A DNA stretch of 64,000 nucleotides from an uncultured Chloroflexia bacterium (lineage in GTDB: Bacteria; Chloroflexota; UBA6077; JACCZL01). The translations under genes were made by a program, and so were the position numbers. The notes under the pieces were generated by a model that was given only the letters and a program-made list of their open reading frames with translations, was not told the origin of the DNA and searched no databases. Below are positions 1 through 13,021 of this stretch, in pieces (positions within the stretch are counted from its first letter, which is position 1; each line of letters starts with the position of its first letter). The stretch covers positions 128,001 through 192,000 of the forward strand of contig CAVXYC010000023.1 in NCBI GenBank assembly GCA_963765765.1. The letters run 5' to 3'.

Positions 1-665
1 TGCTATTCGCGGTCTATATGATCCGGATGCTTCGCTCCACTCAGCAGCAGGTGGAGCAGGCCGTGGCGAGAATTGACCTCGATGCACCGATAGCTCCTCC
101 GATTTCATCGGGTGGCATGGCGGCGGCCATGCCACCCGATGAACCAGAACGGCCACGCCGATTTGCAGTGCGCCCTCGCTGGCGCTGGGAGCATCTACTC
201 TGGCTGGCGCTGGCGGCCTGGGCCGGCGGCATCATCTTCCGAGAGAGCTTGCGCTATACAGGGCCGGCGCAGTTCTTCCCGCTGCTGGCCAGCTCAGGGT
301 TTCTCTTGATCCTGGTGGGGCTAGTCATTACGGACCTGCTCAGGCCTGACCAGCGCGCCAACGAGATCATGGACATCGGCATGCGGACCGGCACGGGCAA
401 GGAAGCATTCCGAGCATTCTTACCCATCGTTGGCTGGATCATCGGGTTCATTGCGCTGATGGGTATTCTGGGACTGCAGCTCGCCAGCATCGTGTTCCCG
501 GCGATCTATATCACCGCGTCGCTTCGATGGCGGGGGAAGAAGGCCTTGTGGGTACTCGCACCAGTCGCGCTCTCGACGTTTGTGTCGGTGATCATTATGG
601 AAAACGTCTTGAACGTCTACTGGCCTGAGCCATTCATTACTTCATGGGTGCAGCGCCGGTTCTAG
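1..665 (+). CDS. 3' part of a tripartite tricarboxylate transporter-like membrane protein (TctB-like C-terminal domain), probably partial at the window edge
   Basis: Several hydrophobic helices, 'PAQFFPLL' and C-terminal 'LNVYWPEP' resemble TctB-type domains; the frame is open from the window start. Confidence 0.5.
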   Translation, partial: LFAVYMIRMLRSTQQQVEQAVARIDLDAPIAPPISSGGMAAAMPPDEPERPRRFAVRPRWRWEHLLWLALAAWAGGIIFRESLRYTGPAQFFPLLASSGFLLILVGLVITDLLRPDQRANEIMDIGMRTGTGKEAFRAFLPIVGWIIGFIALMGILGLQLASIVFPAIYITASLRWRGKKALWVLAPVALSTFVSVIIMENVLNVYWPEPFITSWVQRRF

Positions 666-789
666 ATCAGCGCAAAGCACTTCAGAGTGCGGTGCGGCGT
701 GGGTAGGGCCGCCCTCCACTCTACCCACTGCCCGTATCGGTGATGTCGCCGGAATCCAAAGCGGCCTTCTCCACGCCGCTTCGCACGGG

Positions 790-1351
790 TCAGCGGGTGA
801 TTTCAGCCAGCTTCGCATCGATGACCTGGGCAAAGGTCTCGACGTTTTGCGGCAACGAGGCGCTCACCGTTGATGACGAAGACCGGCGTGGCGATGATGC
901 CGATACTCCGTCCGTTAGTAAGGTCGTCTCGAATCGACGGCAAATCTTCGGCCGAATCGAGACAGGCGCTGAATGGCTCCGGGCTCAATCCGAGATCCAC
1001 GGCGAATTGTTTCAGATTGGCAGATGAGAACTGGCCCTGGTTGTATCCGCGCTGATTCCAGAAGAGAAGATCGTGGTAGTCCCAGAATAGCTCTTCCTGC
1101 CCGGCGCAACGCGCCGCCTGCGCGGCCATTCGACTCTCTTCGCCGATCCAGGCAAAGTCATTCCAGACAACTCGTAGCTGCCCGGTACCGACGTATCGTT
1201 CGATGAGCTGTGGTAACACCTCACGGGTGAATCTTCCACAGCCGGGTCATTGAAAGTCGGCGTATTCCTCCATTGTTACCGGAGCGTCGAGCGAGCCTAG
1301 ATAGCGCTGAGGGTGGGGATCGGACCGTGGAGTTGTGAGGACGTGGAGCAT
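790..1351 (-). CDS. DsbA/thioredoxin-fold oxidoreductase, probable selenoprotein (U-P-G-C); likely indel near 850
   Basis: ORF 1247..1531 ends 'LGSLDAPVTMEEYADFQ' at TGA 1247-1249; the frame continues 'PGCGRFTREVLPQLIERYV' into ORF 803..1219 with cis-Pro 'ATPVFVING'. A one-base shift near 850 gives 'VETFAQVIDAKLAEITR*', similar to the paralog's C-terminus. Confidence 0.85.
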
Positions 1352-1394
1352 AGAATCACCAGGAGTCCACCGCGGTTGATGAATGGGAGGCCCG

Positions 1395-2243
1395 ATGCCA
1401 ACACTCCGCTTTGCCAATGCAGAAGACCTACCGCCCGAAGAGCGCGCCGTCCTTGAGCGGATCGCCAAGCGTATGGGGCGCGCTCCCGATGATTTCGGGG
1501 AGATCTTTCGCGCGCAAGCACATTGGCCCACATACCTGGAAGCGAATCACCAGCAAACACTGTATGGCTTTCGGATCAAGGGCCAATTGCCAGAGATCAC
1601 CAAACAAGCTATGCACGTCGCCGTCTCGATGGCGAATCGGTGCGAGTATTGACTTAGCAGCCATGTAGCCGCCGTGCTGCGGCTGGGACTGACCGAGAAG
1701 GGCGTGACCGAGATCCTCGCAGTGTCCGAGCACACCGTGAGCGTGTGTGCCGCGGCCGAGGGACTGCGTATTCCTTCCGATGTGCCAACTGGGAGCACGC
1801 ACCCGGCCACTGCGATCGTTGCTCCGTTGAGCGATGCCGAACTGGGCGATGCCATTTCCACCATCGAAGCAATTGCCGCCTGGAGCCGCGAGCACCTGGA
1901 CACCGCAACCGCGCCGGCATTCTGGCGAACCATCGCGCACCAGCCGCGCTTTCTACAGGCAACCTGGGCCAAGGACCGACTCATAATGGGGGATGGGGAG
2001 CTTGACGCTGCCGCCAAGGTCTGCACGGCCCTCGCCGTGGCGATGTTCCGTCAGAGCTCGTACTGGACCGGGTACCTTGCGCAACAGCTTCGGCACGACT
2101 TCCGGATGAGCGACGCCACGCTGGTTGAGCTTACGGCCGGCGTGATGCACTACGTATCGTTCAATACGGTGGCGCACGGCATGCGCCTGGCCGCGCCACA
2201 CACAGACATGACCGCGAGCGCATTTCGTGAGCCGGCCCGCTGA
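1395..2243 (+). CDS. Two-domain AhpD/carboxymuconolactone decarboxylase-like protein, probable selenoprotein (C-E-Y-U)
   Basis: 'AVSMANRCEY' + TGA 1650-1652 + 'LSSHVAAVLRLGLTE' joins ORF 1674..2243 in frame; matches the AhpD CxxCxxxH motif with the second Cys as TGA. Confidence 0.85.
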
Positions 2244-2244
2244 G

Positions 2245-2502
2245 TCACCGCTCCACGCTCGCCAGCCTATTTGATGTTCGACGGCTCCTTCCTCCAAGCA
2301 AACTGGGCACGCGGTAGGGATACGGTGTCCGAAGATAGCGCGGCGATTTGTGCACGACGCCCGGGATCGCAGGAATGGGGATACATGTTCCGGTGCCGGG
2401 ATCCCCGGGCTCGTGGAGCGAGATCGCCGCGCTACCCGTAGGGCGCCCATTGTGTGGAAGAGCGTCCGGTGCAGTACTGGCTCTCGCCGTGGAACTATTC
2501 AT
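2245..2502 (-). CDS. Small hypothetical protein, possibly translationally coupled to the upstream AhpD-like gene
   Basis: ATGA overlap at 2499-2502; no recognisable motif. Confidence 0.25.
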   Translation of the reverse strand: MNSSTARASTAPDALPHNGRPTGSAAISLHEPGDPGTGTCIPIPAIPGVVHKSPRYLRTPYPYRVPSLLGGRSRRTSNRLASVER

Positions 2503-3143
2503 CCCCCTTCGAGTTGCCAGATCGGCTTGGGCAATGCCGCGTCACGAACGTCTGCCAGACGACTGGCGCGCTCGCGTCCGGCAACAGCCGACTCGACCGT
2601 GCTATCTGAGAGCTCGAGGCCCAGGGCGTCTACCACCCGCAGGCGAAAGTTGAAATACGCGCAGACCTGCACGATGTCAAGGATGTCGCGGTCGGTCCAG
2701 CCATGGTAGCGGAGCGTCTGCACATCCGCCGCGGTCATGCCGCTGGGATTAATCGTCAGCTTTTCGACGTACTCCAACATCGCAAACTCTGCCGGGCTCA
2801 GGTCCGCTGACCGCCAGTCAGCCTTGAGCGTTTCGGCCACCAGGTCATCGCCGCCCTCTTTACGCAGAGCCTCTGCGTGAGCGGTCGTTCAATACTTGCA
2901 GTTCGCGGTCAGCGAGGTAACCGTGGCAATCATCTCGCGCTGCTGCGTGGTGAGTCCGGAAGGGCCGCGCATGACCTCCCACATCAGCTCCGCCGCGTGC
3001 CACATAGCCTTCGGATTGAGGCTGTGGAGCGAGGAGGGGCTGGGATGCACCCGCTGTTGGCCGCGTTGCTGACGAATCTTCTCGTAGTAATGTAGGAGGT
3101 CCCCGTCAGCCTCGTCGTCGGGGATTGTTCTGATCCAGGTCAT
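2499..3143 (-). CDS. AhpD-like peroxidase-related enzyme, probable selenoprotein (C-K-Y-U)
   Basis: 'MTWIRTIPDDEA...REMIATVTSLTANCKY' + TGA 2889-2891 + 'TTAHAEALRKEGGDDLVAE' joins ORF 2499..2840 in frame, ending with the typical 'YFNFRLRVVDALG'. Confidence 0.9.
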
Positions 3144-3327
3144 GCGCTTCCTCTCATGTGCTCCAAGCACTCGGTATAGCTCACTTCACGGCACTCAACT
3201 CGCTTAGCCCGCGTTATTCACCGCTCACAGCCTACCTGCCACTGAGGATCCTGAGTATCGCGAGAACGTCAACAGGGCATAAGCTTCTTCAGTCAAGGAC
3301 AGCAAGGTAACTCTCCTTGTTGTCATG

Positions 3328-4143
3328 TTAAGGAATGACGGGATCAGGCAAACGTGCCGTGAGCAGCACGTAGCTCAGAATCCCCTGATCGACGGCCTGC
3401 GCCGCGACGCGGGCGAGCGCTGAGGCCTCGTCGAGGTCGACACGGTCGAGCCCGATGCCATGAACCTTCGTCAGTAACTCGCCGCCGGTCAGGCGCAGGC
3501 GAATTTGGCGCACCATCGCAACGAGCGCGGCTCGGTGATCTTCTGTGCGATCGATGGCGAAGCCAGCCTGCTCCAGTTGGCGTACGTATTGCTCCAGCGG
3601 CTGAGCATCGGCAATGCAGCTTACCCAGGCATGGAGCGTCAGGAGCTCAGCGGGCAGAGCTCTCGTTCGGACGAGGTCGCTCAAGCCCAGCCGGCCGCCG
3701 GGGCGGAGGACGCGCGCAAACTCGTTGGCCGCCGTGGGTTTGTCTGGAAACGTGCAGAAGGCGCACTCGCAAATAACGACATCGAACGAGTTGTCGGGGA
3801 ATTGAAGCCGCTCGGCGTCGCCTTGATGGAAATGCACCCGTGCGTCAAGGCCCGCCTCCCTGGCCGTCGTGTCAGCCAGGGCCACGTTCTCAGCCCCGAA
3901 GTCCACGCCGGTCACAGAGCATCCCACCGTCCGGGCGAGGTGGATCGCCGACTCGCCCCGTCCGGAGGCAACATCCAGAACGCGATCCCGCGGAGATAGC
4001 AGGATCAACTCTGCCAGCCGCTCGGTGAGCATCGTCCCACCTGGATGGAACGAGCCAGCCAGGAGCCAGCGCGCCCAATCGCCCTGGTACGCCGCCGCGC
4101 AGCAGGCCTTGAGAATGTCGGGCGAGGGCAACGCTTCAGACAT
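3328..4143 (-). CDS. Class I SAM-dependent methyltransferase, ArsM (arsenite methyltransferase)-like Cys pattern
   Basis: Motif I 'VLDVASGRG', 'RVLRPGG', N-terminal 'CC', and 'VVICECAFCTFPDK' and 'WVSCIADA', which resemble ArsM 'ISNCVINLSPDK' and 'WxGCIAGA'; overlaps the radical SAM stop. Confidence 0.8.
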   Translation of the reverse strand: MSEALPSPDILKACCAAAYQGDWARWLLAGSFHPGGTMLTERLAELILLSPRDRVLDVASGRGESAIHLARTVGCSVTGVDFGAENVALADTTAREAGLDARVHFHQGDAERLQFPDNSFDVVICECAFCTFPDKPTAANEFARVLRPGGRLGLSDLVRTRALPAELLTLHAWVSCIADAQPLEQYVRQLEQAGFAIDRTEDHRAALVAMVRQIRLRLTGGELLTKVHGIGLDRVDLDEASALARVAAQAVDQGILSYVLLTARLPDPVIP

Positions 4144-5644
4144 CGAGACGCGCAGCCGTCACGGCAGGATCGAACGAAAAGCTCAAGGGGATCACGCGTG
4201 CGGTGCGGCCTTCATGTTCAGCTTGCTGTCGCTCCCGCTGACGCCAGGCAAGCTGCGCCCGGGCCTGCTCGCGATAGCCCACGCTGTTGTACGCGCAGAA
4301 CGGGATCTGCTTCCCATCCGGCAGGAGCATCGCCTTGCAGCACTTCATGAGGTTCTTCTGATTGAACGTCCATGGGTCCATGAAGTCCTGGAACATAATC
4401 ATGAACACGCGCTCGGCAAGCGATCCGAGGCTAAGACCATCGGGAAGATCGCAGGCCGCGCAGGAGATCGCAAAGTTGCTCGCCGCGGTGTCCGAGCCGG
4501 GTACAGATGAGCTCGACCACAGCCCCTCCAGCGCGCCCTGGATATCCGCGCCAAGATCGGGCAGGACCCGGTTGGTGATGTAATCCAGGTAGTCCTCCAC
4601 GTTGATCAGCCGAGGCAGCGGCATGATCCTCTCGCCGTCCACATACGCGTAGGTGACGGCGTTGCACGTGGGGAAGCAACAGGGGACAGGAACGAAGTCC
4701 GAGGCGACAAAAAGTTGCTCTGTCTGAGATTCCAGCGCGCCGATGATATCTGGAATCGTCACTCGTTTCAGTGGGTCGTGCGCGCCATGACGGCCAGCGT
4801 GGAACGCGGGTTGAAAATTGACGCCACGGACGGCCGGATGTTCTAGCCCGAAGCGAACGATGCGCCCGACCTCATGCAGGTTCACGTCCCGCTCGATCGC
4901 CGGCACCAGGATGACCTGACAGCCGATCGAGGCGAGTCGGTCAAGCGCCCGCAGCTTCTCATCCAGGAGGTCCGGCTCACCTCGGATGATTTGATATGTC
5001 TCCAATGCAAAACCATCAAATTGAAAATAGATGGACGGCTGCACGGCCGCGAGCTCGGCGAGAAACGCGTCATCACGGGCAATGCGCTTCCCGTTGGTGT
5101 TGAGCATGACATGCGGGATCTGGCGCTCCTGTGCCGCCCGGAGCATCGGAATGATTTGAGGATGGATACTCGGCTCGCCACCTGAGAACTGGACGACTTC
5201 CGGCCGGCCTTCGGTCGCCACGAAATTGTCCAGGATCGCTTCCACGTCATCGAGTGTCAGGCTGAAGCCTACCCCTGCGTTGGCAAAGCACAATGGACAG
5301 TCCATGTTGCAGGCGCTGTTGACCTCGATGATTCCCAGGCAAACGTGCTGCTGGTGGTCCGGACAGAGCCCGCAATCATGCGGGCAGCCGCGGTCAACCT
5401 GACTGCCAAACGCAAGCGGGAACGTGCCTGGCTTGTTGAACCGCGCCAGTCGCACATAAGCTTCGGCGTCTCCGTAGATCAGCGCCTCTACCCGGCCGTG
5501 ATCAGGGCAGCGCTTGCGCATGATGACCTGATTGTCGCGCAGGAGCACCTGAGCGTCGATCGGTCGCCGACATTCGGGACAAATACTGCGGGTGAGCTCA
5601 TGGAACACGTAATCCGCGTTCCGTGGCGAATCAATCACGAACAT
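4136..5644 (-). CDS. Radical SAM enzyme of the MJ0619/Tes (GDGT-MAS, tetraether synthase)-like family
   Basis: N-terminal 'TRSICPEC...KRCPDHG', 'GCPHDCGLCPDH', radical SAM 'CNMDCPLC', 'FSGGEP' and C-terminal 'FMDPWTFNQKNLMKCC...PDGKQIPFCAYN' match the family architecture. Confidence 0.85.
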   Translation of the reverse strand: MFVIDSPRNADYVFHELTRSICPECRRPIDAQVLLRDNQVIMRKRCPDHGRVEALIYGDAEAYVRLARFNKPGTFPLAFGSQVDRGCPHDCGLCPDHQQHVCLGIIEVNSACNMDCPLCFANAGVGFSLTLDDVEAILDNFVATEGRPEVVQFSGGEPSIHPQIIPMLRAAQERQIPHVMLNTNGKRIARDDAFLAELAAVQPSIYFQFDGFALETYQIIRGEPDLLDEKLRALDRLASIGCQVILVPAIERDVNLHEVGRIVRFGLEHPAVRGVNFQPAFHAGRHGAHDPLKRVTIPDIIGALESQTEQLFVASDFVPVPCCFPTCNAVTYAYVDGERIMPLPRLINVEDYLDYITNRVLPDLGADIQGALEGLWSSSSVPGSDTAASNFAISCAACDLPDGLSLGSLAERVFMIMFQDFMDPWTFNQKNLMKCCKAMLLPDGKQIPFCAYNSVGYREQARAQLAWRQRERQQAEHEGRTARVIPLSFSFDPAVTAARLDV

Positions 5645-6198
5645 GCTCCTGTTCTCGGCGGTGAGCGGCTGCCGCCGCCCGAACGGCGTCCACTATCGCA
5701 GAAGGACTGGGGCGGTCCGCGGGCTCCCTGCTGCGGTGGGCGAAGACGATTCGGCCAGCATTATCCAGGACAAAATCGCCGCCAAGCTGGGTAATGTCGG
5801 TTCGGGGCAAACGGAGGGATCGGCCACGCCAAATTCCTCGGACGTACACCATGAGACTCCGCCAGTTCCAGAGTTCGCCGAAGCCGCCCCGCTCCAAGGC
5901 CGAAAGCCCCGTATGCGCGCCGGGTCGGATCACGCAGAAGAGGAAATGGGACATGCTCTCGGTCCGCAAAAAGGGCAGCGCGCTCAGGTGATTCGAACGA
6001 GATAGCCATTACTCTAGCTCCAAGCTCCTCTAGCTCGGTTTGATGATCGCGCAACCGCGCGAGATGCTCTCGGCACGGTATTCAACCCAGCCACCGCAGA
6101 AACACCAGAACCAGCGGTCGCCCGCGCAGCTCAGACAGATGAACCTCGCGTTCATCACGATCCATCAGTACTACGTCGTGAGCGCGCTCACCGATCAC
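5631..6198 (-). CDS. AhpC/TSA (peroxiredoxin-like, PRXL2/SelL-type) protein, probable selenoprotein (U-I-P-C); frameshift near 5900
   Basis: From GTG 6198: 'VIGERAHDVVLMDRDEREVHLSELRGRPLVLVFLRWLG' + TGA 6082-6084 + 'IPCREHLARLRDHQTELEELG...DPTRRAYGAFGL', then shifted to 'QLGGDFVLDNAGRIVFAHRSREPADRP'. Confidence 0.85.
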
Positions 6199-6208
6199 TC
6201 GACGGGCC

Positions 6209-7597
6209 TCACCGGTGCCGCGCCATGAATCGCACAGTCGCACCTCTCCACCCCTGAGTGAGTGCTTTCAGGGTCACGTCGGCGCTGAGCTGCTGAAGAC
6301 CAAAGCTCAATGTTGGGTAGGCATGCATGGTGCCCGCAAGGTCAGCCACCGAGGACCCAAGCCGCAGAGCAACGGCGAGCTCGTTGATCATCTCGCTCAC
6401 ACCACGGCCCACGAGTGTGGCGCCGATGAGCCGGCCGTTCGCTCGGCAGATGAGCTTAATGAAGCCGCGCGTACTGCCCAGCGTCTGTGCGCGGTCCACG
6501 CGGTCCAGCGGTAGGGTATGCACCCTCGTGTCGGCGTTCCTCGCGCGGCAGGCGATCTCGCTCAGGCCGATATGCGCGACCTCGGGGTCTGTGAAGACGA
6601 CCCAGGGAAGCGCCGATCCCGTGCCTGGCAACGCCCCGGGGAGAAGCGCGTTCCGCGCCGCGACGAATCCCTGCCAACCAGCCAAGTGCGTGAATTGCGA
6701 CGCCCCGGTAACGTCTCCCGCGGCGTACACGTGCCGCTGCGATGTGCGTAGATTGCGGTCAAGTTTCAGCCGACCCGCACGGATCGTGATGCCCGCGCGC
6801 TCCAGACCAAGCTGCCGCAATCTTGGGTGCCGACCAGTAGCCACCAGCAATCCGTCGCCCGTGACCGTTCGATCGCCGAGGCTGACTGTGATCTCCGCGC
6901 CATGTGACCGGATGCGGGTGACGGCGTGCTTCAAGAGCAGCGTCACGCCATCGTCCACGAGTGCTCGAGCGAGCGTCTCGCTGGCGGCCGGATCCGCCAC
7001 GGTCAGGACACGATCGGCATGGTCAATGATGGTGACGCGCGCGCCCAGGCGAGCAAATGCTTGGCCCAGCTCAAGACCAACCGGCCCAGCCCCCAGGACG
7101 ATGAGTCTGTCCGGTGTCTGGGTGACGTTGAAGATGTCACGGTACGTCCAGTGCGGCGTGTCTGCCAGGCCCTCGATCGGTGGCTCAGCGGGGCAGGCGC
7201 CAGTGGCAAGGATGATGCGGCGCGCGGAATGAGCCACTTGGCCCACGCACACCGTGTGCGGTCCTTGCATCTCCCCGCGACCAGTGAGGACTTCCACACC
7301 GAGTCGGCTGAGCTGCGCGGAAGACTCTTGCTGACCGACAACTCGAGCGACTTCCTGAACTCGAGCCTGGATAGGTCCGAGATCGGCTAGTCCTGGCCGA
7401 TGGGCTTGAACGTGCGTGTTGGCCAATTCAATCAGCGTCTTGCTCGGGACGCAGCCATACCAGGTGCAGTCGCCGCCCAGGCGCTCCTCCTCGACAATGC
7501 CGACACGCAGGCCAAGCCGACCCGCGAAGTTGGCCGCAGTCAACCCAGCGGACCCGCCGCCGAGCACAAGGAGATCAAAATCTGTCGTTTGCTCCGC
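6209..7597 (-). CDS. Pyridine nucleotide-disulfide oxidoreductase (dihydrolipoamide dehydrogenase/mercuric-reductase-like, not MerA); start codon uncertain
   Basis: 'DFDLLVLGGGSAG', redox 'GGDCTWYGCVPSK', 'GAGPVGLE', 'YAAGDV', 'HAYPT'; lacks the MerA C-terminal Cys-Cys. Confidence 0.85.
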   Translation of the reverse strand, partial: AEQTTDFDLLVLGGGSAGLTAANFAGRLGLRVGIVEEERLGGDCTWYGCVPSKTLIELANTHVQAHRPGLADLGPIQARVQEVARVVGQQESSAQLSRLGVEVLTGRGEMQGPHTVCVGQVAHSARRIILATGACPAEPPIEGLADTPHWTYRDIFNVTQTPDRLIVLGAGPVGLELGQAFARLGARVTIIDHADRVLTVADPAASETLARALVDDGVTLLLKHAVTRIRSHGAEITVSLGDRTVTGDGLLVATGRHPRLRQLGLERAGITIRAGRLKLDRNLRTSQRHVYAAGDVTGASQFTHLAGWQGFVAARNALLPGALPGTGSALPWVVFTDPEVAHIGLSEIACRARNADTRVHTLPLDRVDRAQTLGSTRGFIKLICRANGRLIGATLVGRGVSEMINELAVALRLGSSVADLAGTMHAYPTLSFGLQQLSADVTLKALTQGWRGATVRFMARHR

Positions 7598-7770
7598 CTA
7601 ATGGACGACGTTAGAACTTATTATGCAAGCTCTTTACGACAGAATATGATTTAAAGTTGCTATCCTTCTACTTCAACTAAAAATCCACCGTAAGCCATCC
7701 GTTTCATCGCGCCTGCTCAGCGAGGCTGGTGGCTCGCTCACAACCCAGACAGTAGGCGGAGACGAAGATG

Positions 7771-8730
7771 TCAAGCGTGGGGGCCATACGATTCCACGCG
7801 GGCGTCACCCCGAGAGCGCGCCGGCTCTCCAGTGCGCGAGCCTGTCCGCGTGGCCACACCTGGAGACCTAGCTGTCGTGGGTGAACGGCGGAACCAGCGA
7901 AGGGCGATAACAGTGCCCGCCAGGCCGAAGCCGGCGAGGATCAGCCAGGCCACCGGAGCGAGGTTCGGGCCTTGCTCTGCGATCCATGCCTGGGCATGGA
8001 AGCCGGCGTCATCGAATCCAGCAGAGGCGTAGACGCCGCTGAGTGCTGAAGCGCCTTGGAGGTGGATGAAGCTCGCCCCGAGCAGTATGAGCAGCGTGCC
8101 TGCCAGAAGGCTCGTTGTGTGCGTGTGGAGTGGTCCGATGGGCAGGGTCCGACCGCGGAGCCAGACGCGTCGTCCGAGCTGGAATCGATCCCACAGCCAG
8201 GCAATGACGAACAGCGGCGCCGCCGTCCCAAGCGAATACGTGAAGAGCAGGGCGGCTCCTGCAAGCGGGTTGGCGGTTGACCCGGCAATGGTGAGCACGG
8301 CCCCCAGAAGCGGTCCCGCGCAGAAGCCCGAGACGCCGTATACCAGGCCGGTGAGGTACACGGAGAGCATGCCGCGACCGGTCTGAACTCGTCCGGCTAG
8401 TTGCTGCGGAATGATGGTGAAACCTGTGCCCGTGATCTCGAGCACGCCGAAGCCGATTAACAGCAGGCCAGCGGCGAGGATCGTTTGGTCGCGATAGTCG
8501 AGCAGCAGCGCGGCCACGAGCGACGCGCCGAGCCCGAGGGGAATGAAGATCGTGCAGAGTCCGGCGAGGAAGAGCATCGTCCGGCCGAGGAGCTCTGACT
8601 TGCTTGTGAACGCATAGGCAAAGAACGCTGGTAAGAGGAGCGCGCTGCACGGGGCGAGCAAGGAGAGGACTCCGCCAGCGAATGCCGCGACGAACGCCGC
8701 CTCAAGCATGCCGTGGCCGAATTCGATCAT
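7771..8730 (-). CDS. CcdA/DsbD-family transmembrane electron transporter (cytochrome c biogenesis protein)
   Basis: 'AFAGGVLSLLAPCSALLLP' and 'GFCAGPLLGAVL' with two membrane Cys; multiple TM helices. Confidence 0.85.
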   Translation of the reverse strand: MIEFGHGMLEAAFVAAFAGGVLSLLAPCSALLLPAFFAYAFTSKSELLGRTMLFLAGLCTIFIPLGLGASLVAALLLDYRDQTILAAGLLLIGFGVLEITGTGFTIIPQQLAGRVQTGRGMLSVYLTGLVYGVSGFCAGPLLGAVLTIAGSTANPLAGAALLFTYSLGTAAPLFVIAWLWDRFQLGRRVWLRGRTLPIGPLHTHTTSLLAGTLLILLGASFIHLQGASALSGVYASAGFDDAGFHAQAWIAEQGPNLAPVAWLILAGFGLAGTVIALRWFRRSPTTARSPGVATRTGSRTGEPARSRGDARVESYGPHA

Positions 8731-8809
8731 GACCGTGACCTCAGACGGACCTCAACCCGCACGCCCGAGCCACCGTGAGGCGCGTGCCGATGCACGGCGA
8801 ACGCGTCCA

Positions 8810-9633
8810 CTATCGACTGCCTCGGGCGAGCTCGGCCTCGATGGCCTGCATGAATGAGCTCGCACTGAGCGCGCCGACGAGACGCTGACCGTTGAGAAGA
8901 AACGACGGTGTGGCGCTGATGCCGTGGACGCGGGCCGTTGCCAGGTCCTGCTGGATAGCCGAAAGATCGGCGCTAGCCTCCAGGCAGGTCGCGAACGCGA
9001 CCGGCTCGAGTCCTATGGCTGCCGCGAACGACTTGAAATTCGTTGCGCTGAACTGACCGCCGTTCTCGCCGCGCTGGTTCTGGAAGAGATAATCGTGATA
9101 CGGCCAGAACTGCTCCTGCTGACCGGCGCAGCGCGCCGCCTGGGCCGCCTGCCGGGACTCCTGGCCAATCCAGGCGAAGTCATGCCATACGATACGCAGT
9201 TTCCGGTATCGACGTAGGCTGCGATGAGCTGTGGGGCCACCTCACGGGTGAACCGGCCGCAGCCCGTTCACTGGAAGTCGGCGTACTCGTCGAGCACGAT
9301 CGCCGAGGCCGCGGATCCCAGAAAGTAAGGCCCGGGATATACGCCACTGGCCAGCGTGGGCCCCGACAAGCCGGACGCCAGCGGAGACGGCAGGGCCGAT
9401 ACTGTGGGACCAGGTTTGGACGCCACCGGCGTGGTGGGCGCCGCGGTGGGCTCGGTTGCCCGCGCGGTCGGTGACGGAACCGAGACGGTCGCTGTTGGTG
9501 ACGGCGCGCCGGCAGGCGCGCAGGCGGCAGCCATGATGACGATCGCCAGCGCCGACAGCCACGTCGCGGGCGAGGGGCGCGCGCAGACTGTCCAGAGCCG
9601 TCGCTGACAGATTGAAGCACGAACCTGAGACAC
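8810..9633 (-). CDS. DsbA-family lipoprotein, probable selenoprotein (U-T-G-C); frameshift near 9200
   Basis: Lipobox 'MAAAC', Pro/Thr linker, 'LGSAASAIVLDEYADFQ' + TGA 9268-9270 + 'TGCGRFTREVAPQLIAAYVDTG', then shifted 'LRIVWHDFAWIGQES...SATPSFLLNGQRLVGA...ELARGSR*'. Confidence 0.85.
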
Positions 9634-9743
9634 TAAATAAAGCTCCTGCTGACGTAGTCACTGAACGCCGCCCGAGGCCATTCTAGTCGGGACGCACGGG
9701 CACATTGCTAACGAGGGTTACAAGGCACAGGACGTCGCATGTG

Positions 9744-10433
9744 TCAGCCCTCCGTTCCGACATCGTCGGGCACCAGTCCGCGGCGTACGGCAAAGATCGC
9801 GGCCTGCGTTCGATCCCGCAGACCTGTCTTGGCAAGGATCACTGAGATGTAATTCCGAACCGTGCCCTCGGAGATCATGAGATGGGCGGCGATCTCTCGA
9901 TTGCTGGCGCCACGTCCTAGGAGCGCTAGGACTTCGAGCTCACGGGGGGTGAGTGATTCGCCGCTACCGAGGGCAAGAGGCTCAGTGGTCGCAACGCGGC
10001 CGGCGTGGCGCGCTCGCAGATGGTGCAGGAGCTTCCGCGCGACGGTGGGCTGCAGTGGTGACTCGCCCCGGGCGACCGTCCGGATCGCCTCGGCCAAAGC
10101 GTCCGATCCGATATCTTTGAGAAGGTAGCCGGCAGCCCCTGCTTCAATGGCCTGGAGAACGAGCTCGTCATCGTCAAACGTCGTCAGGACGAGAATCTGC
10201 GCTGACCCTCGGTGGCCGAGGACTGCCTTGGTTGCTGCGATGCCGTCGCGTCGGGGCATGCGCAGGTCCATGAGCACGATGTCCGGTTCATGGTCCCGCA
10301 CCACCCGCTCCGCCTCCAGACCATCCGCCGCCTCGCCGATGACATCGATGTCGGCGTGCAGCTCCAGAAGAGTCCGCAGCCCTTCCCGCATCAGGCTCTG
10401 ATCATCCACGATGACGACGCGAATCGGCTTCAT
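9744..10433 (-). CDS. NarL/LuxR-family response regulator
   Basis: 'VVIVDDQ', 'DIVLMDLRMP', C-terminal HTH 'LTPRELEVL...SNREIA'. Confidence 0.95.
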   Translation of the reverse strand: MKPIRVVIVDDQSLMREGLRTLLELHADIDVIGEAADGLEAERVVRDHEPDIVLMDLRMPRRDGIAATKAVLGHRGSAQILVLTTFDDDELVLQAIEAGAAGYLLKDIGSDALAEAIRTVARGESPLQPTVARKLLHHLRARHAGRVATTEPLALGSGESLTPRELEVLALLGRGASNREIAAHLMISEGTVRNYISVILAKTGLRDRTQAAIFAVRRGLVPDDVGTEG

Positions 10434-10454
10434 CCGGCGTGCATGCGCCGTTCG

Positions 10455-11594
10455 TCAGGCTGCCGCACGTGCCGCGCTCCCAATTGGAATCTCGGCCCGG
10501 AGTTCCCCACCGCCTCCGTCCGCCGTACCAAAGCTTAGTTGGCCGCCGCAAAGCTCAACGCGTTCACGCAACCCGGTAAGTCCGAAGCCTTGCCTAGGTC
10601 CGGAGCCGGCCATCGTCGGCCCTGGCCCATCGTCGCGCACATACACGGAGACCAATGTGCTAGAGCCCTCGAGAGCCACGACCACCTGGCGAACATGAGT
10701 GGCATGCTTCTGCACATTCGTGAGCCCTTCCTGGGCAACTCGATAGAGCGCCTGGGCAACGTCGGACGGAACGTGTTGATCCGGTGGGAGTGAAATCCGC
10801 AGCTCCACCTCGATCGTCGTCGCATCCGAGAAGTCTCTGGTGAGCTTCTCTAGCGCGTGAGCCAGGCTTAGCTCCTCGAGGGTCGCTGCTCTTAGAGCGC
10901 CAACGGATCGACGCACGTCCTGGAGCGAGTCTAGTGTGAGACGGCGCGCCAGGCGCACCGCGGCCAGAGCCCGCTCCTGCTGGGTGGCCGCGAGCTTTTC
11001 GGCCGCCTCGAGCTGCACATTGATGACGGTTAGATAGTGGGCCAGTGAGTCGTGAATCTCACGTGCCATGCGGTTCCGCTCTTGTGCAACCGCGGCCAAG
11101 CGGGCGCGCTCGCTAAGGTCCTGAAGTTGTTGGTGCGCCTTGGACAGTTCGTCGTAAAGCGCCTGTAGGCGGTGCCGGCTGGACGCCTGTCGCAGGACGG
11201 CGAGCGTCAGCACGATCGTGAGCAGATAAAGCGGCAGGACGAAGGAGACGTAACCCGGCAGCTCCGCCAGGCGGTCGGGCCAGGCATACTGCAGCAGGTT
11301 CACGCCGTAAGCCGCCCATACCAGCAGGCTCAGGAGCACGCCGGGCCGCTCCTCGAAGAGCAGCAGCGCTCGACTGGCCGGGACGAGGTAAATCAACGTC
11401 GGCCGAATAAGGGTCCCGTGCGCGCGCACAATCAGGTACCCGATTACGAGCTCCAGCAACAGGCAGCCGATACGCTTCCAATAGGGCGCCTCGGTGCCTG
11501 GCGCTCGGAGCTCGACCAGCGCCATCAACCCCGCCAGGGACGTAAACGTGACGACATACTCTGGTGTCAGGCCGTCCCGCGGTGGTGACAGCAT
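10455..11594 (-). CDS. Membrane sensor histidine kinase (HisKA_3, DesK/NarX-like)
   Basis: TM N-terminus, 'ERNRMAREIHDSLAH', 'QEGLTNVQKHA', 'GFGLTGLRERV'. Confidence 0.95.
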   Translation of the reverse strand: MLSPPRDGLTPEYVVTFTSLAGLMALVELRAPGTEAPYWKRIGCLLLELVIGYLIVRAHGTLIRPTLIYLVPASRALLLFEERPGVLLSLLVWAAYGVNLLQYAWPDRLAELPGYVSFVLPLYLLTIVLTLAVLRQASSRHRLQALYDELSKAHQQLQDLSERARLAAVAQERNRMAREIHDSLAHYLTVINVQLEAAEKLAATQQERALAAVRLARRLTLDSLQDVRRSVGALRAATLEELSLAHALEKLTRDFSDATTIEVELRISLPPDQHVPSDVAQALYRVAQEGLTNVQKHATHVRQVVVALEGSSTLVSVYVRDDGPGPTMAGSGPRQGFGLTGLRERVELCGGQLSFGTADGGGGELRAEIPIGSAARAAA

Positions 11595-11664
11595 GCCCAG
11601 GACCCAGACCCCCAGTGGGAGCGCGAGGCCGGCCAGGCGCAGGAGGCGAATATCTTCCGTTGAG

Positions 11665-12545
11665 CTACTCCACGATCAAGCGTGCCTTCATATTCTGGTG
11701 GAGCGTGCAAAGGTATTCAAATGTGCCCGGCTCCGAGAACGTTACGCTGAACGTCGAGCCTGGGCCCATGCGGCCGGAATCAAAGCCCTTGTCAGTCCCT
11801 GTCACCGTGTGCGCCAGCGGGTCATCGTTCGTCCATGTTACCGTGGACCCCACCCGGACCGCGGCGGTCGCGGGGAGAAACGAGTAGCTCTGAATCCCCA
11901 GGCGCCCGAGCGCTGCTGCCCCGAGCGTGTCGGTTGGCACCGCGCCGCTCGCCCCACTGAAGTAGAGGTTGGCGCGCATCACCCAGTCCCGGGTCGCGCC
12001 AGCGTCCTGATGGCAGAGCGCGCACGCGTGGCTGTCCTGAGGTGGCGTGGCATATGTGCGATCGGGCCGGAAGGCCACCCACTCCCACTCACCCGCGCGC
12101 GCGACCTGGTAGGCCTCTCCAAAACCGGGCTCCTTGCGCTCTACAAATATTCCCGTGAGCTGCTCCTTCTGGAAGCGACGTCGACATCGAGCTCCGGGTT
12201 GCCGTTCGCATCGAGCTTGGCGCGCCACGTCTCCATGACCATGATTGAGCCATAGGGAAATACCTGATTGGGTGGCGCGGAAGGATTTCCCGCCGCGGCC
12301 TCCGCGTTGCCGTAAATTACCCGGACCTGGCGATTGTCCGGTCGATCGAAGACGTAGAGTTGGGGCCATTGTTCATAGCCCTCGGGGAAACCCACGCGGT
12401 CCTCGCTTGGTGCTGGTTTGGGCTGTGCGGCGGTCTGGGCGTGGGCGTCCGATGGTGTCGAATTGAGCCGGGCCAGCTCGATTGGAACGAGTACGACGCT
12501 TGCGAGGACGGAGATCAGCGTGATCCTGAGCACGGAGACGTTCAT
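11665..12545 (-). CDS. Secreted cytochrome P460/c'-beta-family heme c domain fused to a cupredoxin domain; frameshift near 12180
   Basis: Signal peptide; 'VGFPEGYEQW', 'FPYGSIMVME', 'GEWEWVAF', heme motif 'CALCH'; C-terminal 'HTVT...YLCTLHQNM' type-1 Cu ligands. Confidence 0.75.
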
Positions 12546-12636
12546 ATCGCAGGTCCTCTTCTCAGTACTGCCGCCAGAGTAGACCTGTGAGGCGGCTGCT
12601 TCCAGTGGCCCGCGTCATGTTTCAAGTGAAGATTCT

Positions 12637-12650
12637 GTGACATTTGTCAT
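12637..12650. promoter_or_regulatory. Putative response-regulator operator (TGACA..TGTCA palindrome)
   Basis: gtgacatttgtcat lies about 90 nt upstream of the cytochrome-cupredoxin/HK/RR genes. Confidence 0.4.
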
Positions 12651-13021
12651 ATTCAGGACCGGTGGCCTAGCCGCGTAAGCCCAGAACGCTTGCAATAGCT
12701 AGGGGCGTTTGTTCAGGCCTCGCGCCTCCGAGCCTCGAATTGTGTGTGGGCTCCGAACTGATGCTCGACCCCGTGACCTGTTTCGTACGTTCCGCAATTG
12801 GCCAGTTCTCTCCTCGTCGCGGTCCCGCCAATTGGAAAATGCTCGGGGAAGCGACGCACTTGGTGTCTTCGGCTCGGTGGTTGATACGGTCAGTGTCCAA
12901 AGAGTCAGCGCGGCGACAGACTAGACGGCACGAGTCAACTGTGGCATAAGTTTCCGTAACAACACGTTGCCGCGGGCGAATTCAGCGATTCGGCGGCTCA
13001 GCTCGAGGAGGAGACTGGTCC

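Follow-up and report, generated by a model that had tools for sequence, protein, structure and literature searches.

The window analysed here is a stretch of 64,000 nucleotides (nt) on contig CAVXYC010000023.1 of a soil Chloroflexota genome (6.49 Mb in 33 contigs, with a completeness of 91.8% and a contamination of 6.85%). At positions 2499-7597 of its minus strand lie five co-directional genes that encode, in this order, a flavoprotein disulfide reductase, a redoxin containing selenocysteine (Sec), an enzyme of the radical S-adenosylmethionine (SAM) type, a class I SAM methyltransferase and an AhpD-like protein. Our subject is the radical SAM enzyme and the methyltransferase beside it, which constitute a conserved two-gene module. 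The features of this gene group are as follows:

6209..7597, minus strand: MerA-like flavoprotein disulfide reductase, an open frame with Pyr_redox_2 and Pyr_redox_dim domains; start codon uncertain
5631..6198 (approximate), minus strand: SelL-related / AhpC-TSA_2 Sec redoxin with a UxxC motif; TGA at 6084-6082; one-base frameshift
4136..5644, minus strand: radical SAM enzyme of the Tes/TrsS superfamily, from an unnamed bacterial clade; 502 residues, Zn_ribbon_HMPTM and Radical_SAM domains
3328..4143, minus strand: class I SAM methyltransferase rich in cysteine, ArsM-like and close to the DVU_1556 family; 271 residues
2499..3143, minus strand: AhpD-like peroxidase-related selenoprotein with a CxxU motif; TGA at 2891-2889

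The frames of the redoxin and the radical SAM enzyme overlap by 14 nt and those of the radical SAM enzyme and the methyltransferase by 8 nt, as read from the sequence; the stop codon of the reductase lies 10 nt from the GTG of the redoxin, and 184 nt separate the methyltransferase from the AhpD-like gene. Gene calls and overlaps thus agree with the minus-strand operon of the first-pass annotation, in which the frames of the redoxin, radical SAM enzyme and methyltransferase overlapped and a Sec-containing AhpD gene followed.

A conserved radical SAM and methyltransferase gene pair

More than 4,800 relatives of the radical SAM enzyme are present in the protein collection that we searched; the best 120 of these are 71-82% identical to it, and the source-named entries among this best 120 are mostly from Chloroflexota. 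In the species-genome collection 373 stretches carry a relative, and all locus counts given below refer to the 80 that were kept (65-77% identity), which are distributed over the Chloroflexota, Acidobacteriota, Dormibacterota, Gemmatimonadota, Actinomycetota and other phyla. A homolog of the methyltransferase, 46-65% identical to that of the window, stands next to the radical SAM gene in 75 of the 80 loci, directly downstream in 74 and upstream in one (L066). No methyltransferase match was obtained in the remaining five; the contig ends at or just past the radical SAM gene in four of them (L020, L050, L058 and L062), and about 470 bases remain downstream of it in the fifth (L059). An independent sample of 401 genomes was drawn evenly from the Chloroflexota; 39 of them encode a protein matching the TrsS model with at least 299 bits, and in 28 of these 39 (27 when the unpublished genome G227 is left out) a methyltransferase adjoins it on the same contig (E <= 1e-25). 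The coupling of the two genes, proposed from this one locus in the first-pass annotation, is therefore upheld by the neighbourhoods in other genomes, where the pair is retained across phyla as one conserved unit.

The spread of the module is patchy. Any member of the family is found in 50 of the 401 Chloroflexota genomes, and none in the other five that share the window's family. DNA of these five genomes matches the flanks of the window segment, at 783-1303 and from 8037 on, and between about 1300 and 8036 it yields no match save a 60-base motif for the binding of flavin adenine dinucleotide (FAD). Since the same-family genomes match only its flanks, the segment looks accessory, and the thiol/selenol redox surroundings in which the module sits are not shared by the five sampled relatives. 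The clade to which the window enzyme belongs is tight, with 65-82% identity across phyla, and lies within a large bacterial radiation; 41% of the positions of the radical SAM enzyme are at least 95% invariant among 77 sequences. The radical SAM genes of an Actinomycetota metagenome-assembled genome (MAG; locus L065) and a Blastocatellia MAG (L049) are nearly identical, with branches of 0 and 0.008. Branches within the clade are short and at odds with taxonomy, which would fit either horizontal transfer or an error of binning.

Relation to Tes and TrsS

Residues 16-461 of the radical SAM enzyme align with the structure of GDGT-MAS, or Tes (7TOL; E = 1.7e-76). According to the literature on Tes, this enzyme holds a rubredoxin-like iron with three Cys and one His, an N-cluster with three Cys and one His, the radical SAM (RS) cluster with three Cys and a C-cluster with three Cys and one Met, and it forms an intermediate with a C-S bond between substrate and cluster. 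Among 43 aligned sequences the residues C22, C25, C46 and H49, C87, C91, C94 and H97, C112, C116 and C119, and C327, C435, C436 and C450 are invariant. M433 is nearly so; it is aligned with a Met of 7TOL and is probably the Met ligand of the C-terminal cluster. By alignment and invariant residues, all four metal sites of Tes (3Cys+His, 3Cys+His, CX3CX2C and 3Cys+Met) are found in the window enzyme, which bears out the full Tes-type cysteine architecture that had been ascribed to it.

The likeness of the window enzyme to Tes (7TOL/7TOM) consists in its fold and these four sites. It differs in its bacterial accessory spread, in its obligate methyltransferase partner, in a C-terminal substrate domain that is unmatched by the Tes model, and in extra cysteines: C102, C322, C323, C395 and C398 are invariant in the window clade and have no counterpart in 7TOL, and C102 and C322 are common to the window enzyme and a true TrsS. 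The protein reaches 315.4 bits on the curated Tes model (NF045702), for which the cut-off is 450, with a best stretch that covers only residues 18-328. It scores 308.7 bits on the TrsS model (NF045646; cut-off 490), in a full-length fit from residue 18 to 454. Because the Tes model fits only the first of these stretches and the TrsS model the whole, the substrate-side domain differs from that of Tes.

Phylogenetic analysis was carried out on 100 rows with a quick search, with support given solely by the Shimodaira-Hasegawa-like approximate likelihood ratio test (SH-aLRT) and with several long branches flagged. The six rows that pass the Tes model form a clade of their own (SH-aLRT 100), and the 13 rows that pass the TrsS model form another together with three near-misses (99). 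Ten rows of the window clade group together (99) and are nested in a group of 75 rows (91) that pass neither model. Membership of Tes by curated model was rejected on account of the score below cut-off and the separation from the Tes-passing rows; the first-pass assignment of the radical SAM enzyme to the Tes family, taken as orthology, must accordingly be withdrawn. Membership of TrsS was likewise rejected, the score being below the cut-off and the enzyme lying outside the TrsS clade.

TrsS, which was reportedly introduced and named by Haft and Tolstoy in 2025, resembles the window enzyme in its full-length architecture and probably in having the same kind of methyltransferase, which bears the two ArsM-type cysteines and is adjacent and sometimes fused to TrsS. 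The window differs from TrsS in that its radical SAM enzyme is without Sec and in that its partners are a MerA-like reductase and redoxins, not the DVU_1551 nucleoside triphosphate (NTP) transferase or MbdU. No in-frame stop was found in the three true TrsS genes among the 401 Chloroflexota genomes. Judged by sequence, TrsS and the DVU_1556-family methyltransferase (NF045667) are the closest named relatives of the two proteins, and the system is thus not wholly unnamed.

Natural fusions occur in the wider family. P0270 joins a DVU_1556 methyltransferase to a true TrsS, and this fusion ties the two types of enzyme functionally in the sister system. A MocA-like DVU_1551 NTP transferase is fused to a true TrsS in P0231 and P0269, and an MbdU-like metal-binding selenoprotein in P0215. 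Taken together, the four TrsS fusions would suit a role in the maturation of a cofactor or metal centre, if the analogy with the neighbours of TrsS extended to the window clade. Of the TrsS partners, however, only the methyltransferase was seen as a recurrent neighbour in the 80 loci, and the window clade stands apart from TrsS, so that we regard a maturation function as quite improbable.

The sister branches contain fusions of a different kind, namely an LGT-radical SAM protein (P0160) and radical SAM proteins with an AMP-binding domain (P0281, P0282 and P0284). These lipid-type fusions are among the points in favour of a bacterial synthase of tetraether or membrane-spanning lipids, which would couple tails end to end as Tes does and yield lipids of the branched glycerol dialkyl glycerol tetraether (brGDGT) type, with the methyltransferase acting as a tailoring enzyme. 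The four conserved metal sites also fit such an enzyme, as does a CDP-alcohol phosphatidyltransferase gene adjoining the pair in 12 loci, mostly of Ktedonobacteria. The clade is moreover present in Bryobacterales and Terriglobia, and acidobacterial Tes homologs have been proposed in the literature to take part in brGDGT synthesis. Set against this are the partial coverage by the Tes model and the separate position of the clade, the patchy accessory distribution within the phylum and the window's own family, and the redox and metal-stress neighbourhoods in which the pair sits; a lipid synthase also leaves unexplained an obligate methyltransferase with a thiolate pocket. Furthermore, Tes homologs are present in only 3 of 14 Acidobacteria that make iso-diabolic acid, with activity unconfirmed. 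A lipid synthase of this type consequently seems unlikely, and placement of the pair among thiol and selenium redox genes suggests a function other than the production of membrane-spanning lipids.

This distinction matters for the interpretation of metagenomes, in which bacterial Tes homologs are counted as markers of the potential for brGDGT or other membrane-spanning lipids. A survey of the Black Sea reports such homologs in 111 of 684 Chloroflexota MAGs, their activity being unconfirmed, and other papers treat bacterial Tes homologs as unconfirmed candidates for brGDGT synthesis; the product is thus still open in print, as the first-pass annotation had it. If the window clade performs different chemistry, counts of this kind overstate lipid potential, and a widespread pathway of soil bacteria awaits its product. 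In the literature searched we found no printed mention of the pairing of this methyltransferase with a Tes-like radical SAM enzyme, although the paper introducing TrsS may hold one. The same literature contained no paper on DVU_1556 or DVU_1555, none that treats a tetraether synthase together with an arsenite methyltransferase, and nothing relevant on GDGT-MAS with a methyltransferase neighbourhood. New in the present analysis are figures for the association with a clade of MerA-like reductases, the finding of U/CxxC (seleno)redoxins as partners in two phyla, and the placement of the pair in an accessory segment.

The methyltransferase and arsenic methylation

The best NCBIfam match of the methyltransferase is the DVU_1556 family, with 142.1 bits (cut-off 155), followed by ArsM (NF008823) with 112.7 bits (cut-off 263). 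Seven cysteines are conserved within its own family: six show no variation (C14, C15, C125, C127, C130 and C176), and C75 is close to invariant. Compared over 154 residues with the bona fide ArsM that the genome encodes (339.9 bits), the methyltransferase has an identity of 38%; in this alignment C127 falls on the cysteine of the ISNC motif of ArsM and C176 on that of its WVGC motif. The equivalents of C127 and C176 are also kept in the methyltransferase domain of P0270, to which the methyltransferase of the window is 27% identical over its full length. Thus the ArsM-like cysteines noted in the first-pass annotation stand as regards this pair; the N-terminal CC is present in the methyltransferase and did not align in the comparison with ArsM. 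The likeness to ArsM amounts to the class I methyltransferase fold and the ISNC/WVGC-equivalent cysteines. The differences are that the GCGNP motif of ArsM, and with it one cysteine, is replaced by FHPGG, that there are extra cysteines in a C-E-C-x-x-C arrangement, and that ars neighbours are absent. Searches of the Protein Atlas returned only generic methyltransferase names. A predicted complex of the radical SAM enzyme and the methyltransferase scored 0.04, compared with a mark of 0.32, and speaks neither for nor against contact between them.

The true ars cluster of the genome is found on another contig (L101, G000:C10:58000-76000), where ArsM is accompanied by two ArsR genes, a MIP channel and a thioredoxin-type ArsC. 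When the proteins of this cluster were used as queries against the 80 pair loci, ArsC was found in none, the MIP channel in 2 and ArsR in 2, both beside MerA. Identification of the window protein as an ArsM was rejected on its score, on the missing GCGNP cysteine and on the lack of an ars context, and this part of the first-pass annotation fails.

Radical SAM enzymes that pair with ArsM to form C-As bonds, ArsS and ArsL, provide a precedent for an organo-metalloid pathway, in which the methyltransferase would methylate As(III), Se or Te in the manner of ArsM and the radical SAM enzyme would then make a bond between carbon and the metalloid. Such a pathway would accord with the retained ArsM-type cysteine pair, with ArsM as the second-best family match, and with the MerA-like reductase, true mer genes and ArsR-type regulators that lie near the pair in some loci. 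Against it stand the near-absence of ars partners from the 80 loci, the separate ars cluster in which the genome keeps its genuine ArsM, and a methyltransferase that lacks the GCGNP cysteine and lies far below the ArsM cut-off. In our view these objections make an organo-metalloid pathway very doubtful.

Redox partners and possible chemistry

The reductase of the window has a CxxxxC redox site and a Tyr in place of the catalytic His of Lpd and GR, features which it shares with reductases of the MerA/RclA type. It differs from MerA in having no NmerA domain, no C-terminal Cys pair and a basic tail. The solved structures nearest to it are mercuric reductases; it scores 334.9 bits on the MerA model TIGR02053, below the cut-off of 454. 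Of the 80 loci, 30 have a homolog at most 7 kb away from the pair, in many cases immediately upstream in the same orientation or just past the methyltransferase, and 25 of 31 full-length neighbouring reductases (including that of the window) share the motifs GGDC(T/L)(W/Y)xGCVPSK and H-x-Y-P-T and a basic tail. Five other neighbouring reductases have a MerA-type GGTC site; four of these end in LSCCAA and pass TIGR02053 (544-566 bits), and the fifth (L053), which is cut by the end of the locus, is MerA-like by alignment only. One locus has a true MerA gene with MerB behind it (L012:8522-11416), some 4 kb away from the pair, and also contains a DsbD-like gene and a SelL-like redoxin. Among the 28 pair-bearing Chloroflexota genomes, 11 encode such a reductase (E <= 1e-80) within about 5 kb, whereas only 54 of the 401 genomes encode one anywhere. 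The disulfide reductase named as a partner in the first-pass annotation is thus a recurrent third member of the system, joining it in about 40% of the loci.

The reading of TGA as Sec in the window is justified, since the genome encodes tRNA-Sec together with selB and selD, both over their cut-offs, and since the eight homologous redoxins that adjoin the pair at other loci all have a TGA at the same position as the window redoxin. The selD gene (G000:C21:109702-110619) itself has one in-frame TGA and is of the Sec type. In the redoxin, the TGA lies within the motif FLRWLG-U-IPC. The AhpD-like gene has the motif C-K-Y-U and passes TIGR01926 with 130.9 bits against a cut-off of 81.8. Hairpins occur 5-7 nt 3' of the three TGA codons of the segment (the third is in a gene listed below), with z-scores of -2.1, -1.0 and -1.3, which are not clearly above shuffled sequence; as hairpins of the selenocysteine insertion sequence (SECIS) type they give weak support at best to the Sec reading.

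Two of the accessory genes have blemishes. The redoxin frame shifts near 5885-5895 by one extra base, between ...AYGAFGL and RGGFGELWNW..., where the homologs read without interruption (...AFGL(E/Q)RG...), and one base must be skipped in the window copy. The two pieces of the frame score 56.4 and 65.4 bits on the SelL-related family NF040769 (cut-off 120), the gene being frameshifted with its UxxC present. None of the public contigs from four runs spans 5808-6011, the site of this frameshift. The reductase frame starts right behind a TAG at 7600-7598, and its sole canonical start, GTG at 7567, falls inside the FAD-binding strand DFDLLVLGGG. Upstream of this frame the stretch 7600-7700 is AT-rich.

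Further thiol/selenol genes flank the five-gene group, and in Acidobacteria a PrdB/GrdB-like protein is encoded directly past the methyltransferase, with V-U-P-F-C (U161) in one locus and V-C-P-F-C in another:

7771..8730, minus strand: DsbD/CcdA-type membrane thiol-electron transporter, context, upstream of the reductase
803..1351, minus strand: Rcas_1661-family thioredoxin-like (seleno)protein, TGA at 1249-1247 in U-P-G-C, context, downstream; start provisional
L029:9316-10033 and L025:9316-10053: PrdB/GrdB-like protein, a Sec/Cys pair (Sec in L029, Cys in L025)

The Rcas_1661-like gene is the third Sec gene within 7 kb. The copy of the PrdB/GrdB-like protein in L028 looks frameshifted.

These neighbourhoods bear on whether the pair and its companions function together. 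The pair on the one hand and the selenoprotein and redox genes on the other may be separate cassettes, placed side by side in a shared stress island. Few of the other loci (8 of 80) have SelL-like Sec redoxins beside the pair, three more thiol/selenol genes surround it in the window (DsbD-like, AhpD-like and Rcas_1661-like), and two of the accessory genes look damaged, all of which would be expected of independent units. On the other side, the reductase adjoins the pair far more frequently, in both samples, than its genome frequency would predict, its gene commonly lies immediately upstream in the same orientation, and the frames of the redoxin and the radical SAM enzyme overlap in the window. 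We therefore consider mere cohabitation rather unlikely. As for the selenoproteins that the first-pass annotation made part of the system, the Sec genes are real in this locus and optional elsewhere, AhpD-like genes being found in just 2-3 loci.

We tentatively favour a mechanism in which a radical functionalises a C-H bond, thiolates assist a coupled transfer of methyl, and a dedicated chain of reductase and redoxin feeds the process. The gene content makes this possible without making it probable, and the identity of the module is far more certain than the mechanism. The radical SAM enzyme would abstract a hydrogen from an unactivated C-H bond of a hydrophobic substrate, as in Tes. This substrate may be a lipid tail, as the LGT and AMP-binding fusions in the sister branches and the phosphatidyltransferase near the pair in Ktedonobacteria would suggest. 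The resulting carbon radical could be trapped at the C-terminal [4Fe-4S] site. The methyltransferase might bind a soft nucleophile, be it sulfur, selenium or a metalloid, by means of C127, C176 and its extra cysteines and methylate it; the product would then have, in place of a C-C link, a carbon that bears a methylated heteroatom. The oxidised cysteine pairs would then be reduced again by transfer of electrons from NAD(P)H through the reductase to the (seleno)redoxin.

Several observations weigh against this proposal. The phosphatidyltransferase genes and the LGT and AMP-binding fusions fit plain lipid chemistry equally well, and when its sequence is compared with solved structures, the methyltransferase has nearer relatives among the ordinary O-, N- and C-methyltransferases of small molecules than in ArsM. 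The scarcity of Sec redoxins at other loci also tells against it, as do the 50 of 80 loci in which no reductase lies within 7 kb; the reductant chain is hence either not obligatory or encoded elsewhere. Finally, the frameshift in the redoxin and the absence of a canonical start in the reductase indicate either that the accessory genes are decaying or that the assembly is in error.

A more specific form of coupled radical and methyl-transfer chemistry can be imagined, in which a lipid or hydrocarbon tail gains a methylthio, methylseleno or dimethylarsino group at its terminal carbon by way of a radical made by the Tes-like enzyme, delivery by the methyltransferase and resetting of the thiols by the chain of reductase and selenoredoxin. 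This version is highly improbable. If true, it would represent a new route to heteroatom-bearing lipids and might supply the carbon-arsenic step in the formation of arsenic-containing hydrocarbons and fatty acids, a step for which we know of no enzyme. The recurring reductase and redoxin partners are in any case concrete handles for reconstituting the reaction.

Two open reading frames of 170 and 165 amino acids at 1428-2450 on the minus strand, which separate the AhpD-like gene from the Rcas_1661-like one, gave no match in Pfam or NCBIfam. A search for riboswitches gave nothing real in positions 1-13000 of the window and none at gathering score in nine further loci, and a scan for promoters and terminators returned no more sites than in shuffled sequence. 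Other neighbours recur near the pair: Crp/Fnr regulators in 11 loci, DUF3179 proteins and a second methyltransferase in 8 each, and also ResA/TlpA-like and thioredoxin-like proteins, ArsR/SmtB regulators, extracytoplasmic function (ECF) sigma factors and a pair of thioredoxin reductase and thioredoxin.

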